The notes below the pieces were generated by a model. That model ran no database searches, was not told the DNA's origin, and worked only from the letters and a program-made list of their open reading frames with translations. A stretch of DNA of 64,000 nucleotides from positions 128,001 to 192,000 of the forward strand of contig JBFWNW010000003.1 in the NCBI GenBank assembly GCA_050250855.1, read 5' to 3'. Made by a program: the position numbers and the translations under genes. Below, one piece after another: positions 28,510 through 59,088 of the stretch (within the stretch, counting starts at the first letter, position 1; each line of letters begins with the position of its first letter). The stretch is from Candidatus Babeliales bacterium (lineage in GTDB: Bacteria > Babelota > Babeliae > Babelales > JACPOV01).

Positions 28510-29871
28510 ATGCTGTTTTTTATTCTATTTATTATTTTTATTGCTATTAATGCATCATATCCAGAACTTGATACAAATTTTGGCCAAAATGGTAAAGTCA
28601 TAACTGATCTTGGCCGCAATACCGGTGGTGTTAATTGTTATCATCCATCAATGCATGTTGTAACTCAACCAGATGGAAAAATTATTATCGTTGCAGACAT
28701 TTATAGCAATAATATATTCGCTTCTACAGAAATTGTAGATTCTGATTTTCTTCTCATACGCTACAATCCCGACGGCTCACTTGATAAATCTTTTGGAAAT
28801 CAAGGAGTAGTTGCTCTTAAAATAAGTACAAGCGAAGATCCTGATGACTTTGCATTTGATATTGCTTTGCAAAAAAATGGAAAAATTATCGTTGTAGGCC
28901 AAACATGGCAACGAGGAGGAGGTCTTTCTGATGGTGTCTTACTAAGACTAAATCAAAATGGCTCATTAGACCAATCTTTTGGCAATCAAGGCATTATAAT
29001 AGAAAATTATTATGGCCATATTATTTCAGGCTTCTTTAGAGTTAAACTACAAGATGATGAAAAAATTATCGTTGTTGGTTCAGAAGGCCTTGGAGCACCA
29101 AATGCTGATCCAATAGAAAAAAGCTATCGCCAATTCTTCATTGCTCGCTATATAAAAGAAGGAAAAATTGATACTTCATTTGGTGAAAATGGTTATGCTT
29201 CATCACCATTGCAAGATTATGAGATGAGTTTTATTGATGCTATTCATATACAAAAAAATGGAATTATCCTTGTTGCCGGTGCAACCAATGACGTTCGCAC
29301 GGCAGATGAATGGAAAGAACCTTTAAAACATACTGGCGTCGTAAGATCATATCATCCAGATGGATCTCTTAATGAATCTTTTGGCACTAAAGGAACCGTT
29401 ATTTTACCAAATATGGCAATATTAGATATTATAGAACAAGAAGATGGTAAAATTTTAGCTGTAGGCTTTAGTTATAATGCTGGACATAACACACATTGTT
29501 GGAAGATTATTCAACTACTGCCAAATGGACAGCTAAACTATGATTTTAATAAGATATTCAACGAAAATAATCCTATTGAAGGAACTATTCAAAAATGTGC
29601 CGCAAAAAATATTATAGTTAGCTCAACTAATAAAATTCTTGTTACAGGTTATGCAGAACTTGATGGCAAAAACTGTTTTGCTGTTGCTTGCTATAATGAA
29701 GATGGTAGCCTGGATGAAAACTGGGGCAATGAAGGGAAATTATATACCACCTTCGATTCTTATCATGATAAAAGCCTAGCCCTATCACTTCAAGACAATA
29801 AATTAATAGTTGTTGGTGAAAGCTTTAATGGCACATATTTTAATATCGCTCTTGCACGTTTTTTGCTTTAA
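28510..29871 (+). CDS. Secreted delta-60-repeat (beta-propeller-like) protein
   Basis: Recurrent Q.DGKIIVVG...RYN.DGSLD.SFG..G units. Confidence 0.85.
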   Translation: MLFFILFIIFIAINASYPELDTNFGQNGKVITDLGRNTGGVNCYHPSMHVVTQPDGKIIIVADIYSNNIFASTEIVDSDFLLIRYNPDGSLDKSFGNQGVVALKISTSEDPDDFAFDIALQKNGKIIVVGQTWQRGGGLSDGVLLRLNQNGSLDQSFGNQGIIIENYYGHIISGFFRVKLQDDEKIIVVGSEGLGAPNADPIEKSYRQFFIARYIKEGKIDTSFGENGYASSPLQDYEMSFIDAIHIQKNGIILVAGATNDVRTADEWKEPLKHTGVVRSYHPDGSLNESFGTKGTVILPNMAILDIIEQEDGKILAVGFSYNAGHNTHCWKIIQLLPNGQLNYDFNKIFNENNPIEGTIQKCAAKNIIVSSTNKILVTGYAELDGKNCFAVACYNEDGSLDENWGNEGKLYTTFDSYHDKSLALSLQDNKLIVVGESFNGTYFNIALARFLL

Positions 29872-30004: not shown

Positions 30005-30466
30005 TTACTTACCAAAAAATAATTTCCAAATTTTATAAAGAAAGTAACCAGGAATATATTTTTCTGCAGAAGATTTTACTGGATACTGTTTTTTAATTAT
30101 CTTTGGATCTCCAGTACCAGCATAGGATGACAGAATAATATTTTTAGTATCTTCATCCATACTATTATTCTGCATCAAACCAAGCTTATGCAAATTATCT
30201 ACTTTTTCTTTACCAAGAATTTCTGTTGTTATAGATTTTCGCTCTTCTTGTGCATTAGACCACAAAGAGCCCTGAAAATTATAATTTTTTTTATCTGCTG
30301 CACTATAGCGCCATGTCCAATAATAATCTGAGGCTTCAACTTTTTCTAAGCTAGACCAAACTTTATCTATTTTTTCTTGCGGCACATCAACGCCATTGCG
30401 CAATACTGTTGCTTGTACCGATAAAACCATAAAACCAGTCAATAAACTCATCATTATTTTTTTCAT
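30005..30466 (-). CDS. Hypothetical secreted protein
   Basis: AAGGA RBS; signal peptide VQA|TV. Confidence 0.65.
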   Translation of the reverse strand: MKKIMMSLLTGFMVLSVQATVLRNGVDVPQEKIDKVWSSLEKVEASDYYWTWRYSAADKKNYNFQGSLWSNAQEERKSITTEILGKEKVDNLHKLGLMQNNSMDEDTKNIILSSYAGTGDPKIIKKQYPVKSSAEKYIPGYFLYKIWKLFFGK

Positions 30467-31092: not shown

Positions 31093-31893
31093 TCAATCTA
31101 TTTTTACGTTCTGATCATGAAAAAAGCTTAAAAGCTTCCTATGCATGAGATCAGCCCCCGCTACATATGATCGATAACCAGGTATAACCGGCTTGCCTGT
31201 ATAGGTGGAAACTATACCGCCAGCCTCCTGAATTAGTATTAAACCAGCTGCCACATCCCACCACGATAAATCCTCAAAAAAGATACCATCTGCGCGGCCA
31301 CAGGCAACGTATGCCTGATCAAGCGCTATTGCTCCCAGGTGCCTAAATGCATAGGTGCGCGGCGAAATATCCTCAAGATGATGCAGCACACTCAAAAAAG
31401 CTTTACCTTTAGCATACGGAAACCCTACTAAAAAGAGAGAACGGTCCAATGAACGCTCTTTGGATACCGTAATTTTTTGGTCATTCAAAAATGCTCCTGC
31501 TCCCTTTTGAGCGTAAAAAAGCTCATCAAAAAGCGGTACATAGATCATGCCAAAAACCGGCTGCTGTTTGTAAGTCAATGCTACCGATATGCAAAAATAA
31601 GGAATACCAAACGCAAAGTTGGTGGTACCATCAAGGGGATCTATAACCCAACAATAATCCGCATCTTGATTGCCTCGCTTGCCCGATTCTTCAGCAAAAA
31701 ATGATGCTTCCGGCATCACATTGGCAAGCTCTTGCATTAAAAATGTCTCGCTTGCCAGATCAGCTTCGGTCACAAATCCCTGATCTTTTTTATCACGCCA
31801 GGTCATCTGCTTGTGATAATAGAAAAGAAGAATCTCTCCCGCTTTACGTATAATCGGCTCAACCTGTAGCTTAAGCTCTTTATGCATCAGCAA
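31093..31893 (-). CDS. suhB: Inositol monophosphatase family protein
   Basis: [27 protein letters not shown]. Confidence 0.9.
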
Positions 31894-34558
31894 GTGCCTT
31901 ATCTGTTAAACGAAAACTTTCACGCGGTTCAATACCCAAAAGCTTATAAATTTCATCAGCATACAATGTTTCTTTTTCAAGAAGTGTTTTTGCCAAGAGA
32001 TCAAGCTTGTCGCGATTATCTTTTAATAATTTCTCAGTTCTTTGTTGTGCATCTTTGAGTAAGTTATGAACTACTTCATCAATCTTTTCAGCAGTTTTTT
32101 GTGAATACTCAAATTGGCCGTTACCTTGATTATAAACAACGGTGCCAAGCTCATCGGTCATACCATAACGGCACACCATATTACGCGCAGCATGTGATGC
32201 TTTGTTAAAATCATCAGCAGCACCAGAACTCAATACATTAAAAATAATCGTTTCAGCAACACGGCCACCTAAGGCAACCATGATATCAGCAAAAATCTCT
32301 TCTTTAGTTGCAAGATATTTTTCACGGTCAGGTAATGAATAGGAAACTCCTAATGCTTTACCTCGTGGCAAAATAGTAACCTTGTGTAAAGGATCTGCAT
32401 GATCTGGCAATAAAAGACGAATCAACGTATGGCCAGATTCATGGAATGCAACCATTTCACGCTCTTTTGGTGATAACACCACTGAACGCAACTCTTTACC
32501 TAATAAAATTTTATCACGCGCTTGCTCAAAATCTGTCATGCTTACCGTTTGTTTTTCTTGATGCTTTGTTGCAAGCAATGCCGCTTCATTGACCAAGTTT
32601 GCCAAATCAGCACCAGAAAAGCCTGGCGTTCCTCGTGCAATACGCATCAAATCAACATCAGTATCTAATTTTATTTTTTTTGCATGAACAGCAAGAATTT
32701 GCTCACGACTTTTAATATCTGGATACGGCACATCAACTCTACGGTCAAATCTGCCTGGACGCAATAACGCGTTATCAAGCATATCAGGACGGTTTGTTGC
32801 CGCCATAACAATAACAGTAGAACCTTCTGAATTAAAACCATCCATTTCTGTTAACAATTGGTTTAATGTTTGCGCTCGCTCATCGCTGCCGCCATCAAAA
32901 CCTGCAACACGCTTGCCACCAACTGCATCAATTTCATCAATAAATACTATAGATGGCGAGTGTTTACGCACTTGTGCAAAAAGCTCACGTACGCGAGAAG
33001 CACCAACGCCAACATACATTTCTACAAAATCTGAAGCACTTACGCTAAAGAATGGACAGTTTGCTTCGCCAGCAACTGCTTTGGCCAATAATGTTTTACC
33101 ATTACCAGGTTCCCCAACAAGCAATACACCACTTGGCAATGTTGCTCCTAGGCGACGATATTTTTCAGGATTTTTAAGAAAATCTACCACTTCCTGCAGC
33201 TCTTCTTTTGCTTCAGGAATACCAGCAACATCATCAAATTTCGTTTTTACTTGGGTAGGCATAAACATTTTTGGCTTACTGCTACTTTTACCAAGCATAG
33301 CACCACTGCCCATAGAAGCTTTTTTACGCGATTCTAAAATAGCGGTACGTGCATCAAGTAAATCTTGCATGCCAACTTTTTTCTGATTTTTCTTTGAGCA
33401 ACTAATAGCTGCTTCATTAACAAGATTTTCTAAATCAGCACCAGAAAAACCTGCTGTTTCTTGCGCTAATTGCTCAAAATCAATAGCGTCTTCAACGCGC
33501 ACTTTACGTGTATGAATTTCTAAAATTTCTTTACGTGTTTGTGTATCGGGATATTCAACCGTCACCCAACGGTCAAAGCGACCAGGGCGCAAGAGCGCTT
33601 TATCAAGCACTTCAGGAATATTGGTTGCTGCAATAACAATAACATTAGAATTTAATGCATCAAAACCATCCATTTCAGTAAGCAACTGGTTTAATGTTTG
33701 TTCACGTTCGTCATGACCACCACCAAAACCACTACCGCGAGAACGGCCAATAGCATCAATCTCATCAATAAAAATAATAGCTGGTGCATGTTTGCGAGCC
33801 TGTGCAAAAAGATCACGTACACGGGCAGCGCCAACACCAACAAATACTTCTATAAAATCTGAACCGGTAATACTAAAGAAAGGACAGTTTGCCTCACCTG
33901 CAACTGCTTTAGCTAATAATGTTTTACCATTACCAGGTTCACCAACTAATAAAACACCACGAGGAATTTTTGCGCCCAAACGGCGATATTTTTCAGGATT
34001 TTTCAAAAAATCAACGATATCGGCAAGCGCTTCTTTTGCCTGCTTTGAACCAGCAACAGAATTAAAGCCTACATTAATCATAGAAGGCATTACCATACGC
34101 GCTCGGCTTTTGCCCATATTAAAGATGCTGCTCCCACTTCCGCCAGAACCTTGTCCGCGACGGAAAAAGTACCAAACAGCTAAAGGTAAAAGTAATAACA
34201 ATGATAAAAAGACCATGTACCACATGCCATAAGAGCTTGATACCGGGATAACGTGAATATCAACGCCATGCTCTTTTAAAAGATCCCAATTTCTTGGGGT
34301 ATCAACAATCGTTGCTTCAAAGCGAGTTCCATCTTTATCATTCAAAACACCGTATACATCTTGTCCTGCTATTTGAACAGATTTTACTTTACCCTGCTCT
34401 ACCGCAGCAATAAAGCTTGAATAATGCATAGTTTTTACCTGACGAGAATAGTCAGTCAAATAGGTAAGCATAATGATACCAAACAGAAATGCCCCTACCA
34501 TAATAAGGATATTTTTTGGTCCTTTTGGTACATGATTCATGGTAAATTTGTTTTTCAT
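31880..34558 (-). CDS. ftsH: ATP-dependent Zn metalloprotease FtsH with two tandem AAA+ modules
   Basis: 2 [25 protein letters not shown] each present twice; HESGH in the M41 domain. Confidence 0.95.
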
Positions 34559-34728: not shown

Positions 34729-36063
34729 TCAACTAACTACTAAAGGAACCTTATAGGCAGGCGACCAGGCAGGATGGTTACAACGATCCTGTGCTGAGGT
34801 CAAAAAGGTTCGCTCTTGCGTAACAAGATTCAGTACCGCTATACGGCTAGCTGAACCTGTCTGCACTGTAAAAGCAAGATAGTTGCCACAAGGGGACCAG
34901 GTACATTCTTCTTTATGGTTTTTATCAAAGGTTACCTGTTCACTTTTTTTGGTTTTCATATCATAGACAAAAATTTGCATAGCCCCATCAACAAACGCAC
35001 TATACGCTATTTTGCCACTTTTAGCACAATAGGCTGGGCTCACACAATGGTCGCCATCGGTCAATACTTCTGTTTGCTCGGTAAATGCATGGTAGTAGCA
35101 CACCTGTGGCCCTTTTTTGTAAGCATCAGAACAAAAAATAATATCCCCATTTTCACACAACGTTGGACAAACATTATTACCATTATTAGCAGTAATTGGC
35201 CGCACTAAAGATTCATCATCTTTTTGTTCACATACATATAACTGACTTTTTCCATTCAATGAACGACAATAAATAACGCGCTTACTATCTGCAGAAAATG
35301 AAGGCAACATATTAAACCCGTCAAAATTAGAAACGAGTTTTCGTTGTTTGTGCAAATCAACCGACATTAAACGAATGTTAGAACGCGTTGCCTCCGAATA
35401 TAATAATAATGGTGAAATGCTGTCTTTGTTCCAGCGCAGGGCAAATGCTCTACCCTTTTCTACTAAGGGCGTGCAAAATTCATTATAGAGTGATTGTGCA
35501 GGATCTGCATATGGCGGTGCCAGGCAAATAGTGCGTGCTCGTTTTTTTTCACCCTGCACTTCTTTACAAAATGCAATACGAGAGGTAAAAAAGCCCTCCT
35601 GTCCTGTCAAAAGCGGCCACAATTGCCCTGCTAATAATTCTGCTCTGCAGCGCACCGGCATATCTTGTTTTGCAAAACGCTTACCGCGCACCATTGAAGC
35701 TACTTTGGTATCATACATGCGCCACTCTAAAAAATTATCCGCTGATTCAGTTATAAATACCGAAAGAGGAAAACCATCTACGGCCATCTGTTTTACTTGT
35801 TTTGTAGTAGGAACTTTTTCAAACGATTTTACCGTAACTTTAAAACCACTGGTGCGTTGGTTCGTGCGATCAAGCATAATTTTTATATACCGCGCAAACT
35901 CATCAAGTTCTGCGGTATGTTTACCAACGACACCAAGCAATAGAGGCATTTTTTGTTGCTGTTCTTGCTTGCTTTGAATGGTCATGGTTGAGGCTTGCGG
36001 CTTTGCATACAATGCTTGCTGCATTACAAAAATCATTACTAATGACAAAAGCTTTTTTTTCAT
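34729..36063 (-). CDS. tolB: TolB-like periplasmic beta-propeller
   Basis: GFFTSRIAF, PD40-like repeats (PSFSADS, TWSPCG, PAWSP); operon context. Confidence 0.82.
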   Translation of the reverse strand: MKKKLLSLVMIFVMQQALYAKPQASTMTIQSKQEQQQKMPLLLGVVGKHTAELDEFARYIKIMLDRTNQRTSGFKVTVKSFEKVPTTKQVKQMAVDGFPLSVFITESADNFLEWRMYDTKVASMVRGKRFAKQDMPVRCRAELLAGQLWPLLTGQEGFFTSRIAFCKEVQGEKKRARTICLAPPYADPAQSLYNEFCTPLVEKGRAFALRWNKDSISPLLLYSEATRSNIRLMSVDLHKQRKLVSNFDGFNMLPSFSADSKRVIYCRSLNGKSQLYVCEQKDDESLVRPITANNGNNVCPTLCENGDIIFCSDAYKKGPQVCYYHAFTEQTEVLTDGDHCVSPAYCAKSGKIAYSAFVDGAMQIFVYDMKTKKSEQVTFDKNHKEECTWSPCGNYLAFTVQTGSASRIAVLNLVTQERTFLTSAQDRCNHPAWSPAYKVPLVVS

Positions 36064-36283: not shown

Positions 36284-37018
36284 TTACTGCTTAAAGGTAA
36301 TAACAACTTCCTTGCCCCATAACTGTTTTGGAAATTTCATATTCATTAATGCTGCACGCGCTGCAATATCATACGTAATAACAGACGAAGATTCTTCAAT
36401 ACCACAGGTACGCACAGCACCTTTATGATCAATAACTACCTTCAATGCACAATGCACCGTACTTGCAATGCCAACGGGAGGATGCCATACTTTTTGGATT
36501 TCTTGCTCAAGCTGATCTTGTAAATCGAGCATAATTTTATCATCACGGCCAACGTAAATAATCTGTTCTTCCTGTTTTACCGGTGCGGCTTTTGGTGGCA
36601 TAGTTTTTTGTACCAGTTTTGGTGCGGGTTTTTGTGCTATTTTTTTTTGTTCTATTTTTTGCTCAGGTTTTTTTGCTGGCTCAACTTTTTTTTCTGCTAC
36701 AACCGTTGTCTGTTTTTTTTGTTCAACTTTTTTTGGCACTGGTTGTTGTGCAGCCTTTTGTTGTGCTACTACTACCGGTTGTTGCGCAATAGTTTTTAAT
36801 GTTGGCACCAATACTATTTTTGCAGCATGAGCACGCGGTTGCACCACAAGATGCAGTTTGCTCGGGTGCTGCATTTCATACAACCATAAAATCATACAAC
36901 AAGCGATACCGTGTAATGTGCTTGAAAGTACAAAAAGCTTACTCAGATACCGATAGCGTTCAGGCACGCGTTGCAATAGCTTTTTGCATTGCAATATTGA
37001 CATCTTTAATTCCCCCAA
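36284..37018 (-). CDS. TolA/TonB-like energy transducer (start uncertain)
   Basis: TM helix with S..LH, K/P/Q-rich linker, C-terminal IQKVWHPP...SS...YD.AA. Confidence 0.8.
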   Translation of the reverse strand: MGELKMSILQCKKLLQRVPERYRYLSKLFVLSSTLHGIACCMILWLYEMQHPSKLHLVVQPRAHAAKIVLVPTLKTIAQQPVVVAQQKAAQQPVPKKVEQKKQTTVVAEKKVEPAKKPEQKIEQKKIAQKPAPKLVQKTMPPKAAPVKQEEQIIYVGRDDKIMLDLQDQLEQEIQKVWHPPVGIASTVHCALKVVIDHKGAVRTCGIEESSSVITYDIAARAALMNMKFPKQLWGKEVVITFKQ

Positions 37019-37400
37019 TAGTTTTTATGCGGTCAATAACGCCAACCAAAAGATCACAAGAACTTTTTGCGTGTGCATGAACCCAAATACTTTGCTCAGA
37101 ATTATATTTTTGTGCTACATGTTTTTTTACCGCTTCTCCTACGGTATCCAAAGAAACTTCATTATTATTAAAAAAGATTTTACCAGCAGTATCAATGGAA
37201 ATAATAAGCTGCTGCGGCTCTTTACCTGCTTCTTGCGAAGAACCTTTTGGCAAATCAATTTTTAATGCATTATGCAACATCGGCGTTGCAACCATAAAAA
37301 TAATAAGCAACGTTAACGCTGTATCAATAAGTGGAGTTAAACTTACTTCTGGAATTACATTGCGTTGACGTTTGCGTTGGTGGTAACGACGCATCATCAT
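36960..37400 (-). CDS. tolR: TolR/ExbD
   Basis: LTPLIDTALTLLIIFMVATP, IDLP. Confidence 0.85.
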   Translation of the reverse strand: MMMRRYHQRKRQRNVIPEVSLTPLIDTALTLLIIFMVATPMLHNALKIDLPKGSSQEAGKEPQQLIISIDTAGKIFFNNNEVSLDTVGEAVKKHVAQKYNSEQSIWVHAHAKSSCDLLVGVIDRIKTIGGIKDVNIAMQKAIATRA

Positions 37401-37404
37401 AACA

Positions 37405-38091
37405 CTACCTTTTTATAAATAACATTTGTACAAGCCATGACAGTTTGTCTGCCAAATTAAACAGCTTGTGTTCAAAACTACGCACTTGTGTATTTAAGTA
37501 ATGGAACATTAAGAGTGCAGGAATTGCCACTAATAATCCTACCAAGGTAGTAATTAATGCTTCTGCTATACCGGGTGCAATAGTAGCAATATCTGCTTGT
37601 TGCGTTTCACTAATACGAATGAAAGAATGCACCAAGCCCCACACCGTACCAAAAAGACCAAGTAATGGCGCAGCTGCTGCAGATCCTGACAAAATAGGCA
37701 AATATGATTCTTCTTGATACAGCACTTCTTCAATAGTTTGTTCTACATGCTGCATTAAAAGTTCTAATTCATGCTCACTCAATGGCATTAAACTTTCTTT
37801 AACTTCTAACAATGATTTTAAAAATGATAAATTTTTAGCAACAACGTACCCTGGCAGCGTGTGAGAAAATGCTGCAGCCATAGTACGTAGATCATCAAGA
37901 TTGTGAACCTTTTTTAAATAGTTTAGCGCTTCTTTTAATTGCCGCTTTTTAATTCTAAACATTACTATTTTGTAAAAAAAGACCGTCCAACAAAGAATAG
38001 ACATGAATAGCAAAATAAGAAGCACAAATTTGGTCATGCTATCTGATTGTGCTATTAAATTAAAAAATGCATTACCCTCTAAAAATCCCAT
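37405..38091 (-). CDS. tolQ: TolQ/ExbB
   Basis: APLLGLFGTVWG, IAPGIAEALITT..GL.VAIPA. Confidence 0.88.
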   Translation of the reverse strand: MGFLEGNAFFNLIAQSDSMTKFVLLILLFMSILCWTVFFYKIVMFRIKKRQLKEALNYLKKVHNLDDLRTMAAAFSHTLPGYVVAKNLSFLKSLLEVKESLMPLSEHELELLMQHVEQTIEEVLYQEESYLPILSGSAAAAPLLGLFGTVWGLVHSFIRISETQQADIATIAPGIAEALITTLVGLLVAIPALLMFHYLNTQVRSFEHKLFNLADKLSWLVQMLFIKR

Positions 38092-56655: not shown

Positions 56656-59088
56656 ATGAATTCAGAAATTATTAACCAACAGCCCCTGCACCAACCCCCT
56701 CTGCACAATATGCTACCTCTTTTACCGCTTAAAAATGTAGTCATATTGCCTAAGACTATCGTGCCTATAATTGTTGGACGAGAGATTTCTGTAAAGGCTG
56801 TGGAAGAGGCATTAAGAGGTGATGGCTCTATTTTTATCTCCACTCAAAAGGATGGCGAGGTAGAAAACCCTACCCAAAAAGATGTTTTTGAGTATGGTAT
56901 ACGTGCCACTATCCTTCAGGTTCCCAAAGAAGAACAACGCCGTTATAATGGTATGTTTAAAATCTTGGTAGAAGGCCTTTCTCGAGCAAAAATAGTAAGC
57001 TCTCATGTTGAAAATGGCTTTATTATGGTTACCTGCCAAGACCTTCCTACAACAAATCTAGAGCTTTCTACCCATATGCAGGCATTATGGCGCTATGCAA
57101 AAGGACTCTATGAAAGCTATGCTCGTCTTAATGAAAAAATCCCCGCCGATTTAATGAGCTTGGCAAAAACAGCAGAAGATATGGATACTATTGCAGATAC
57201 TATTGCTGTTCATTTAAATCTTTCTTTTTTTGATCGCCAAGAACTTGTTGAAACAGTTGATCTTAAAGAACGTTTAACAAAACTTAGCAAATTCTTAGCA
57301 CAAGAAATCGAAATTCTTGAAACAGAAAAACGTATTAAAGGCCGCGTTCAAAATCAGGTTGAAAAAAATCAACGTGAATATTATTTAACAGAACAAATTA
57401 AAGCTATCCAAAAAGAGCTTGGCCGTGATGATCATCAACATGATATTAATGAAATTCGTGCAAAAATAAAAACGCTTGGCTTGCCAGAAGAAGTCTATGA
57501 AAAGACAGAAAAAGAGTTAAAGCGCTTAGATCAGATGCCACCTCTTTCTGCTGAAGCAGTTGTTTCTCGTAACTATGTTGACTGGGTAATTTCATTACCA
57601 TGGAATAAACAAAGTAAAGATCGCATTAGCTTGGCCCAAGCCGAAAAAATTTTAAATCAAAAACATGCAGGCTTAAGCAAAGCAAAAGAACGTATTATCG
57701 AGTTCTTGGCTGCAAAAAAATATTCTAAATCGTTAGAACGCTCCCCTATTATTTGCCTTGTAGGAGCTCCAGGTGTTGGTAAAACATCACTTGCTTCTTC
57801 TATTGCAGAAAGTTTGGGGCGTGAATTTGTACGTATCTCTTTAGGTGGTATTCGCGATGAAGCTGAAATTCGTGGTCATCGCAGAACCTATATTGGTGCA
57901 TTACCAGGAAAAATTTTACAAGCCATGCGTAAAGCAAAAACAGTAAACCCAGTTATTTTGCTTGATGAGATTGATAAAATGACCCGTGATATTCATGGTG
58001 ATCCTGCTGCCGCATTACTTGAGGTACTTGACCCAGAACAAAACAAAAATTTTGTAGATCATTTTCTTGAAGTTGAATATGACCTTTCAAAGGTTATGTT
58101 TATTGCTACTGCCAATATGATTGATACTATTCCGTTACCGCTTTTTGACCGTATGGAAATTATCACGTTACCTGGTTATATCGACGAAGAAAAAGTTACC
58201 ATCGCTCGAAAATTCTTGATCCCTAAAGGACTTAAAGAACACAGTTTGGATGCTCATGCTTTTAAAATAAGCGATGAGCTTTTAGAGCATCTTGTTTCTT
58301 ATTACACGCGAGAAGCTGGGGTCCGTCAGCTAGAACGAGTTTTAAATAAACTTATGCGCAAAGTTATTCAAGAACTACTCAACAAACCAGAAAAAAAATC
58401 GGTCGCTATAACTAAAGAGTTGATTGTTGAGTGGCTTGGCTATCAAAAATACAAAAAAACATCACTTGACCATTCAAAAGATCGCTGTGGACTTGCTACA
58501 GGACTTGCTTGGACAGAAGTTGGTGGTGATATTTTAGAGATTGAATCTACCGTGCTTCCTGGCAAAGGTAATGTAACCCTAACAGGACAGCTTGGTGAAG
58601 TAATGCAAGAATCTGCTCAGGCAGCATTAAGCTATATTCGCTCTCGCTCAGCTGCACTTGGAATTAATGCTTCGTTCCACTCAAATAAGGACATTCACGT
58701 TCATTTACCAGAAGGTGCAACCCCTAAAGATGGCCCATCTGCTGGTATTACCATGTGTGCGGCTTTAGTTTCTATGCTTACTAAAAACCCTACCAAAGCG
58801 GCTGTTGCCATGACAGGTGAAATAACCTTGCGTGGCCGCGTATTGGCAGTTGGTGGCCTTAAAGAGAAACTTTTAGCTGCTCAACAACATGGGATGAAAA
58901 CCGTTCTTGTTCCTAAAGAAAATGAAGATGACATTAATGAAATGTCTAAAGAAGTGAAAACTAGCCTTTCTATCATCTTTGTTGAAAATATGGATGAAGT
59001 ACTTAAGCATGCATTGGTTAATGACCCTTTCATTCTTAAGCCAAAAAGAAAAAGAAAAAAAAGAACTAAAAAGAAAAGTAAGAAGTAA
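56656..59088 (+). CDS. lon: Lon protease
   Basis: [30 protein letters not shown]. Confidence 0.97.

Follow-up and report, generated by a model that had tools for sequence, protein, structure and literature searches.

The subject of this analysis is the gene ftsH, on the minus strand at 31880..34558 of a 64,000-nucleotide stretch of DNA from a Candidatus Babeliales bacterium (hereafter the window: positions 128,001 to 192,000 of contig JBFWNW010000003.1, assembly GCA_050250855.1). The gene is one uninterrupted open reading frame (ORF) of 892 residues plus stop, and it encodes a membrane-anchored FtsH protease in which two complete AAA modules, D1 and D2, precede a single zinc-metalloprotease domain. 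The two-module architecture is real. The best explanation, and in our judgement a probable one, is that this is a housekeeping tandem-AAA FtsH in which a 276-residue unit was duplicated in an ancestor of the clade, and which works as a three-tiered, double-motor hexamer. The host genome is 1.22 Mb and 95% complete, and the closest relatives of its FtsH carry the names Candidatus Babeliales, Babeliaceae or Dependentiae.

From the N terminus, the protein consists of a first transmembrane helix (TM1), a periplasmic domain, a second transmembrane helix (TM2), D1, D2 and the M41 peptidase. Pfam finds AAA twice (E 2.4e-91), AAA_lid_3 twice, Peptidase_M41 (PF01434) once at residues 694-872 (E 2.7e-59) and FtsH_ext (PF06480) at residues 17-103, so that the survey for two AAA domains plus M41 that was proposed in a preliminary description of this DNA, made from the letters alone, returns this combination in the window gene. 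With TIGR01241, the NCBIfam equivalog model for FtsH, the protein reaches 1189.6 bits (cut-off 600). Features by which FtsH is recognised (TIGR01241, MEROPS M41) are present, namely a two-TM anchor (FtsH_ext at 17-103 together with model helices at 14-40 and 112-135) and a C-terminal M41 peptidase with an HExxH zinc site, HESGH at 706-710. Those of the classical AAA clade, which are Walker A and B, the arginine fingers of the second region of homology (SRH) and an aromatic pore loop, occur twice over. The protein departs from characterised and solved FtsH in having two AAA modules per protomer, not one, and shares with type II AAA+ proteins the presence of both in a single chain. Every motif from which the preliminary description had read two full AAA cassettes was found in its place: GEPGNGKT at 206 and 482, IFIDE at 262, VFIDE at 538, FVG at 239, YVG at 515, LLRPGRFDR at 322 and 598, MGKS at 148 and LGKS at 422. 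HESGH occurs once, at 706, in agreement with the single protease domain that had been placed after the AAA modules.

Alignment of D1 (residues 134-416) with D2 (411-693) gives 170 identical residues in 284 columns (59.9%) with two single-residue gaps. The period of the repeat is 276 residues (828 nt), and its unit comprises the Gly/Ser-rich linker that follows TM2, the AAA large subdomain and the lid. The pre-AAA linker, whose duplication had been noticed earlier ([11 protein letters not shown] versus [13 protein letters not shown]), is therefore included in the repeat. At the DNA level the copies are identical at 582 of 857 positions (67.9%) and the longest identical run is 26 nt, so this is not a repeat collapsed or expanded in assembly, as had also been argued from the divergence of the copies. 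Contigs from three samples cross the D1-D2 junction. Logan contigs of 6968 and 9986 nt come from runs X1 and X2, possibly the source samples, and match 32300-34300 with 0 differences; a third sample, X3, yields a 586-nt contig that spans 33188-33773, likewise with 0 differences, and crosses the junction near 33300. A rearrangement hinted at by short read-mapping joints (sides under 40 nt) was rejected, since these joints are conserved-motif matches of the ftsH genes of other organisms.

FtsH genes were then cut from 70 Dependentiae loci, and their modules were counted with a hidden Markov model built from D1 and D2 of the window. This gave 35 intact membrane-anchored doubles, the window gene included (DD), 23 single-AAA genes of ~603-649 residues (S), 12 other paralogues (P) and 2 shorter anchorless doubles (dd). 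Both modules of all 35 DD genes have Walker A (GxxGxGKT), Walker B (DE), the TN of sensor-1 and a pore loop of the form aromatic-hydrophobic-Gly; the arginine-finger motif is found in D1 of 35/35 and D2 of 34/35. In a 36-sequence alignment of database relatives, the invariant residues are K212/T213, D265/E266, N313, R324/R327 and D297-G298-F299 in D1; K488/T489, D541/E542, N589, R600/R603 and D573-G574-F575 in D2; and H706, E707 and H710 in the protease. The ratio of nonsynonymous to synonymous substitution rates (dN/dS), limited to two gene pairs with unsaturated synonymous divergence, was 0.033 and 0.033 for D1, 0.059 and 0.012 for D2, and 0.027 and 0.034 for M41. Judging from these sequence comparisons, both modules look functional and catalytically competent, and both are under strong purifying selection. 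Two loci, L066 (G097) and L067 (G009), hold double-AAA ftsH genes with two frameshifts and one, respectively, which are either pseudogenes or sequencing errors in low-contig assemblies.

The two modules have diverged in different halves. In the front half (to about residue 300), inter-family identity is 0.776 for D1 versus S, 0.695 for D2 versus S and 0.795 for S versus S; in the back half (SRH and lid) the corresponding values are 0.515, 0.591 and 0.658. At a threshold of 80% or more, a single column tells D1 and D2 apart. It is that of the pore-loop aromatic, which is Phe in D1 and Tyr in D2, and Phe in 23/23 S genes and most outgroups. With looser thresholds, the other columns diagnostic of D1 or D2 lie mostly in the lid and S matches D2 at all of them; at five columns of this lid type, the outgroups agree with the D2-like S at two and are uninformative at three. 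Our reading is that D1 would have retained the ancestral membrane-facing half of the module and D2 the ancestral protease-facing half. The surfaces that appear to have changed, the lid side of D1 and the top of D2, are the ones that would meet if the rings stack, which is indirect evidence in line with a head-to-tail arrangement.

In the working form that we consider most likely, six protomers would build three coaxial tiers below the membrane, a D1 ring, a D2 ring and an M41 ring. Substrates would pass through two pore-loop staircases, first the Phe loops of D1 and next the Tyr loops of D2, before they reach the proteolytic chamber. Such a particle, with its twelve ATP sites, would grip substrate about twice as well as ordinary FtsH does, and would amount to a ClpA/p97-like arrangement fused to its own protease. 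The preliminary description had suggested a double-ring membrane protease or extractor. The parts of this that stand are the two complete conserved modules, the membrane anchor and the one protease, whereas we infer that the rings stack, that both hydrolyse ATP and that unfolding or extraction would gain in power. The background offered for it, that FtsH is a weak unfoldase, fares less well: it is contested in a section of PMC9601784, where the unfolding strength of FtsH, weak or not, is presented as open.

Structure prediction supports the parts of this model better than their arrangement. The AlphaFold2 monomer (36-sequence alignment) has confident domains, with a mean predicted local distance difference test score (pLDDT) of 79.8 and a predicted TM-score (pTM) of 0.50. 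The modelled D2 and M41 domains superpose on protomers of FtsH, AFG3L2 and YME1 with TM-scores of 0.82-0.87 and a root-mean-square deviation (rmsd) of 2.8-4.6 Å. Four points weigh against the three-tier, double-motor hexamer. The orientation of D1 relative to D2 is left undefined in the monomer, where the linkers at 136-151 and 416-427 have pLDDT below 50 and the pTM is the 0.50 given above. When the D1-D2 model is compared with p97 and NVL over 540-570 columns, the rmsd is only as good as 10-13 Å. The extra module has apparently been lost several times; many relatives can thus do without what it adds, and the whole lineage seems not to depend on it. Finally, D1 of p97 and D2 of NSF retain their motifs yet hydrolyse little, so conservation cannot prove hydrolysis. 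This low hydrolysis despite kept motifs is in part stated in a passage of PMC2674469. No RNA data set was listed for this stretch, and a look for expression of the gene found none.

In a different model, two rings form and only one is a motor that does the threading; the other module, by analogy with D1 of p97 or D2 of NSF, would mainly bind nucleotide to hold the hexamer together, serve as a spacer or adaptor platform in the gap between membrane and protease, or gate entry. The asymmetric divergence of the halves and the difference in pore aromatic, F in D1 and Y in D2, argue that the modules are not equivalent, and repeated module loss suggests that a single motor is enough. Type II AAA+ proteins often split labour in this way, according to passages in PMC2674469, PMC8666677 and PMC7568338. 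Against this model, essentially all genes retain the Walker B Glu, sensor-1 Asn, arginine fingers, inter-subunit DGF motif and aromatic pore loop in D1 and D2 alike, and dN/dS is equally low; from a ring with a purely structural role, one would expect some catalytic or pore residues to have gone. We regard a one-motor enzyme as unlikely. We give still less credence to a planar assembly, in which three protomers would alternate D1 and D2 in a single six-module ring, with three TM anchors and three M41 domains per particle. The D1-D2 linker is flexible (~10-20 variable residues plus the copied segment) and might extend to an adjacent position, no stacking is seen in the monomer model, and two- and three-module forms, which would give six as 2x3 and 3x2, dominate among the multi-module FtsH representatives found in other lineages (15 and 10 of 26; see below). 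On the other side, a four-module protein (P0126) exists and four does not divide into six, and the front half of D2 has diverged, though it would still face the membrane in a planar ring. In solved FtsH, six M41 domains form a closed chamber and the main oligomer contact, and three could not close it; moreover, the C terminus of D1 and the N terminus of D2 lie on opposite AAA faces, as in the head-to-tail p97 and ClpA. That the gene is an assembly artefact, a chimeric contig or a decaying pseudogene is vanishingly improbable, as nothing about the window gene favours it (frameshifted copies occur in two related genomes, G097 and G009), and against it stand the 892-residue open frame, the three-sample junction contigs, 68% DNA identity between the copies, purifying selection, and the same architecture in 34 other genomes, several of them single-contig.

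The double FtsH also occupies the place of an ordinary one. M41 matches in its own genome number two, the double ftsH and a paralogue on contig 1 (G000 contig 1, ~411402-413090, minus strand, locus L002). In the paralogue, whose single AAA module carries GPPGSGKT and VFIDE, the pore-loop region is degenerate and HQAGH replaces HExxH, and therefore the double ftsH is the only FtsH of this genome with an intact protease site. Read from these genes, it would be the housekeeping enzyme and the sole active FtsH of its host. The HQAGH paralogue is probably protease-dead and might act as a partner of the double FtsH or regulate it; weak M41 matches in 815-865-residue frames of G103, G105 and G098 suggest that it is conserved in the family. 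An M41 search of 10 further DD genomes, each at least 92% complete, found no ~610-residue single-AAA ftsH alongside the double gene, which was the only strong M41 match in 8 of the 10. With the window's own genome included, the double form occurs without a coexisting single-AAA copy in 11 of 11 genomes checked; it replaces the ordinary enzyme rather than adding to it.

In the window, ftsH is part of a co-directional string, tolQ-tolR-tolA-like-tolB-like-ftsH-suhB (Table 1). Within flanks of ~1-1.5 kb, in which misses are uninformative, a tolB-like gene lies upstream of 23/35 DD and 15/23 S genes and a suhB-like gene downstream of 10/35 DD and 10/23 S genes. At stand-alone P and dd loci, flanks of the same length held such neighbours in 0/9. 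The double and single-AAA ftsH genes are positional orthologues at the same tolB-ftsH-suhB locus.

We considered whether the double FtsH compensates for missing AAA+ systems and rejected this, because ClpP is absent whatever the FtsH type, Lon is universal and a ClpB-type gene is present. In a search of 261 Dependentiae genomes, strong ClpP matches (E ~1e-30) were confined to 3, which may be contamination, and the window's own genome had none; Lon was found in 260. The own genome has two Lon genes and one ClpB-type gene, and, within the genomes tested, the latter type occurs whether the ftsH is double or single. Given the near-absence of ClpP, FtsH and Lon would be the only ATP-dependent proteases of Dependentiae. 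One of the two Lon genes lies in the window (Table 1) and the second on contig 2; in many Dependentiae genomes of either FtsH type, Lon and ftsH are 20-50 kb apart on the same contig.

The double form is patchy, restricted to part of one major Dependentiae clade and not phylum-wide. The six-frame search of the 261 genomes, which make up one order with 21 family codes, found an FtsH-like match in 257. Scored from the match table as a collinear match across both modules in a frame of ~880-950 residues, the double form is present in ~52/261 genomes and 8/21 families: 10/10 genomes in f1 (one frameshifted, one cut by a contig end), 21/41 in f2, 2/4 in f8, 1/8 in f9, 5/5 in f13, 2/2 in f16, 6/8 in f19 and 5/80 in f21. 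Module-by-module verification confirmed 35 double genes, the window's own among them, and two further ones are frameshifted. The possibility raised in the preliminary description, that relatives have single-AAA FtsH only, is thereby answered by 34 further verified genomes. In the other genomes, a frame of ~610 residues matches query residues 1-390 and 563-885, which corresponds to a single-AAA FtsH.

Additional ftsH genes were seen at several loci. L054 (G108:C1:207500-212800) and L053 (G079:C8:66500-78000) hold shorter double-AAA paralogues of 764 and 796 residues that have no FtsH_ext and are possibly soluble. The G108 copy derives from the DD gene of its family, because its D2 is sister to a D2 of f13; that of G079 is an independent duplication in a clade otherwise without double forms. 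At L050 (G241), L055 (G212) and L058 (G043), a tandem or nearby extra ftsH lies beside the housekeeping copy, each sister to its neighbour. In the IQ-TREE module tree, the G120 paralogue is sister to its own D2 (100/100), and those of G241 and G212 are sister to the adjacent S gene. Duplication of ftsH is frequent in Dependentiae.

The module tree comprised 85 modules, with 12 non-Dependentiae rows as outgroups. The Dependentiae modules all fall into one clade that excludes 11 of the 12 outgroup rows (98/97), and D2 therefore arose inside the phylum; the twelfth row, P0149, grouped with a Dependentiae P paralogue. A phylogeny of D1 versus D2 had been proposed as a check on the preliminary description. 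It returned D1 as one clade (59/96); D2 was not recovered as a single clade, yet the approximately unbiased (AU) test does not reject such a clade (p = 0.65; the constrained tree is 11.9 log units better). The position of the junction is identical in 35/35 DD genes, in which only the short linker differs in length. Identity between D1 and D2 of the same protein is close to that between families, 0.689 versus 0.679 in the front half and 0.480 versus 0.469 in the back half. Constraining D1 and D2 of the window lineage, f1+f13, a group picked after the tree was seen, to an exclusive clade costs 56 log-likelihood (lnL) units (p-AU 0.025). A separate duplication in each family is disfavoured on these grounds, with same-protein D1-D2 identity only ~1% higher, the common junction and the p-AU of 0.025.

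Trees of the parts that were not duplicated show how DD and S genes are related to each other. In a tree of the N-terminal domain and M41, the two types are intermingled along family lines. An f21 S gene falls with f21 DD and that of f8 with f8 DD, the S gene of G011 is sister to the DD genes of G008 and G010 (100/97), and the S gene of G025 groups with the DD gene of G005 (98/80). A single clade of DD genes in these parts, as expected from transfer or ancient paralogy, was rejected (delta lnL 120, p-AU 0.0003). A Lon tree of 60 genomes, used as a proxy for the species tree, recovers the family codes. All 23 sampled DD genomes fall in its major clade of 47 rows and 0 in the other clade of 13 rows, and the DD state needs 9 changes on this tree, at least 5 of them forced by starred branches. 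On balance we lean towards one duplication near the base of the major clade, after which the gene descended vertically at an unchanged locus and collapsed in frame to one module several times.

Such collapses could proceed by recombination between D1 and D2, which would restore an ancestral-like module from the front of D1 and the back of D2. In half-module chimera tests (informative-site strings and nearest neighbours), S genes of the clade without double forms show the same D1-front/D2-back pattern, and the pattern therefore reflects the asymmetric divergence of D1 and D2. Recombinational exchange between relatives may be an alternative source of the DD/S pattern.

Multi-module FtsH proteins are found outside Dependentiae as well. 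Among the best 150 matches of an exhaustive phmmer search of 1.84 billion cluster representatives, of which 149 were scanned, 26 representatives have at least two FtsH-type AAA modules (two in 15, three in 10 and four in one, P0126). In a few of them, the extra module is degenerate and has no Walker A. One of those counted as two-module, P0122 (1428 residues, from a metagenome cluster of 6 members), is two whole FtsH proteins fused as AAA-M41-AAA-M41, each with HEAGH. Named cluster members place a three-module form in Thermoleophilaceae and a two-module form in Melainabacteria. In a FastTree analysis, the modules of a given protein cluster, for 20/25 representatives, with one another or with those of a few other, mostly multi-module, representatives and not with Dependentiae D1 or D2, which indicates that multi-module FtsH elsewhere arose by many independent duplications.

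A broader reading, which we offer tentatively and hold as somewhat less secure than the single duplication, is that the ring number of FtsH is evolvable and reversible. A second ring would have been gained once in Dependentiae at the housekeeping locus, kept intact over family-level timescales in some lineages and lost by collapse at least three times in others, with other phyla building two-, three- and four-module FtsH independently. If this is true, there are near-isogenic natural pairs, such as the single form of G011 and the double forms of G008 and G010, and a natural series in which to measure how each further AAA+ ring affects a membrane protease in force, processivity and substrate range. 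Sister lineages with single-module orthologues at this locus, together with three- and four-module cousins in other phyla, provide a ready comparison of ring number on one protease scaffold.

Our full-text search of the published literature, partly through top-ranked results, turned up no report of an FtsH with two or more AAA modules. The term "FtsH" is absent from the Dependentiae genome papers PMC6561590, PMC4378268, PMC4776705 and PMC12172432, supplements aside. In databases the architecture is hidden by its name, as such proteins are called "ATP-dependent zinc metalloprotease FtsH". The features of the gene and of its surroundings in the window are collected in Table 1.

Table 1. The double-AAA ftsH gene, its parts and nearby genes, in window coordinates.
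Feature	Position	Strand	Basis or remark
ftsH, whole coding sequence, 892 residues plus stop	31880..34558	-	ORF, Pfam, TIGR01241
N-terminal membrane anchor, residues 1-133 (TM1, periplasmic FtsH_ext, TM2)	34160..34558	-	Pfam 17-103; AlphaFold2 helices 14-40 and 112-135 flanking a small alpha/beta domain
Gly/Ser-rich TM2-D1 linker, residues 134-151, holding [11 protein letters not shown], template of the duplicated linker	34106..34159	-	alignment; pLDDT <50 at 136-151
D1 AAA+ module (large subdomain and lid), residues 152-416	33311..34105	-	Pfam, motif alignment, dN/dS
D1 motif residues: Walker A 206-213, pore-1 F239-V-G, Walker B D265/E266, sensor-1 N313, Arg fingers R324/R327			
D1-D2 junction linker, residues 417-427, variable, then the copied [11 protein letters not shown] segment	33278..33310	-	same junction in 35/35 genes; pLDDT <50 at 416-427
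D2 AAA+ module, residues 428-693	32480..33277	-	Pfam, motif alignment, dN/dS
D2 motif residues: Walker A 482-489, pore-1 Y515-V-G, Walker B D541/E542, sensor-1 N589, Arg fingers R600/R603			
M41 zinc-metalloprotease domain, residues 694-892, HESGH 706-710	31883..32479	-	PF01434 E 2.7e-59; D2+M41 structural superposition
tolB-like (PD40 beta-propeller), directly upstream of ftsH, marks the conserved ftsH locus	34729..36063	-	domain match
suhB-like inositol monophosphatase, directly downstream; start overlaps the ftsH stop by 14 nt	31093..31893	-	ORF and domain match
tolQ	37405..38091	-	MotA_ExbB
tolR	36960..37400	-	ExbD
tolA-like	36284..37018	-	weak TonB_2
Lon gene, C-terminal part of an 831-residue frame	~58408..59019	+	~24 kb from ftsH
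453-residue protein	28510..29871	+	three DUF5122 beta-propeller repeat matches (E 1.1e-42)
153-residue ORF downstream of suhB	30005..30466	-	no Pfam match

Compared with canonical FtsH (TIGR01241; MEROPS M41; 7tdo, 7vhp, 2ce7, 3kds, 2dhr) and the mitochondrial AFG3L2 (6nyy) and YME1 (6az0), the window protein has the same two-TM anchor, AAA with SRH, and HExxH M41 domain, and differs in that a further complete AAA module stands between the anchor and the module next to the protease. The FtsH-family chains matched in the Protein Data Bank all have one AAA module. A review likewise assigns FtsH one AAA+ module in the passage concerned and names Cdc48 and ClpA/B/C as two-module proteins (PMC7226402), and the sole "two AAA domains" passage of PMC2674469 in which FtsH also figures concerns NSF and CDC48. 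The type II ATPases p97/VCP/Cdc48, NVL/Rix7, NSF and Pex1/6 resemble the window FtsH in having two head-to-tail classical-clade AAA modules and, unlike it, have no protease domain and no membrane anchor. In sequence, query residues 159-667 are collinear with D1-D2 of p97/Cdc48 (p97 197-702; E ~1e-110). The CDC48 model TIGR01243, however, gives 469.5 bits, under its cut-off of 802.65, which does not place the protein in the Cdc48 family. Both modules are FtsH-derived and arose inside Dependentiae (98/97), and the tandem is therefore convergent and not inherited from Cdc48. With ClpAP and ClpCP the shared idea is two stacked translocating rings that feed a proteolytic chamber, the stacking being predicted for the window FtsH; those systems differ in belonging to the Hsp100 clade, using a separate ClpP peptidase and being soluble. 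Passages in PMC8666677 and PMC11570520 describe a division of labour between their D1 and D2 pore loops. The multi-module FtsH proteins of other lineages also carry at least two FtsH-type AAA modules ahead of M41, and differ from the window FtsH in that some of their extra modules are degenerate and their origins separate. In the window FtsH, the tandem-AAA (type II) architecture has evolved anew, inside a self-compartmentalised membrane protease.

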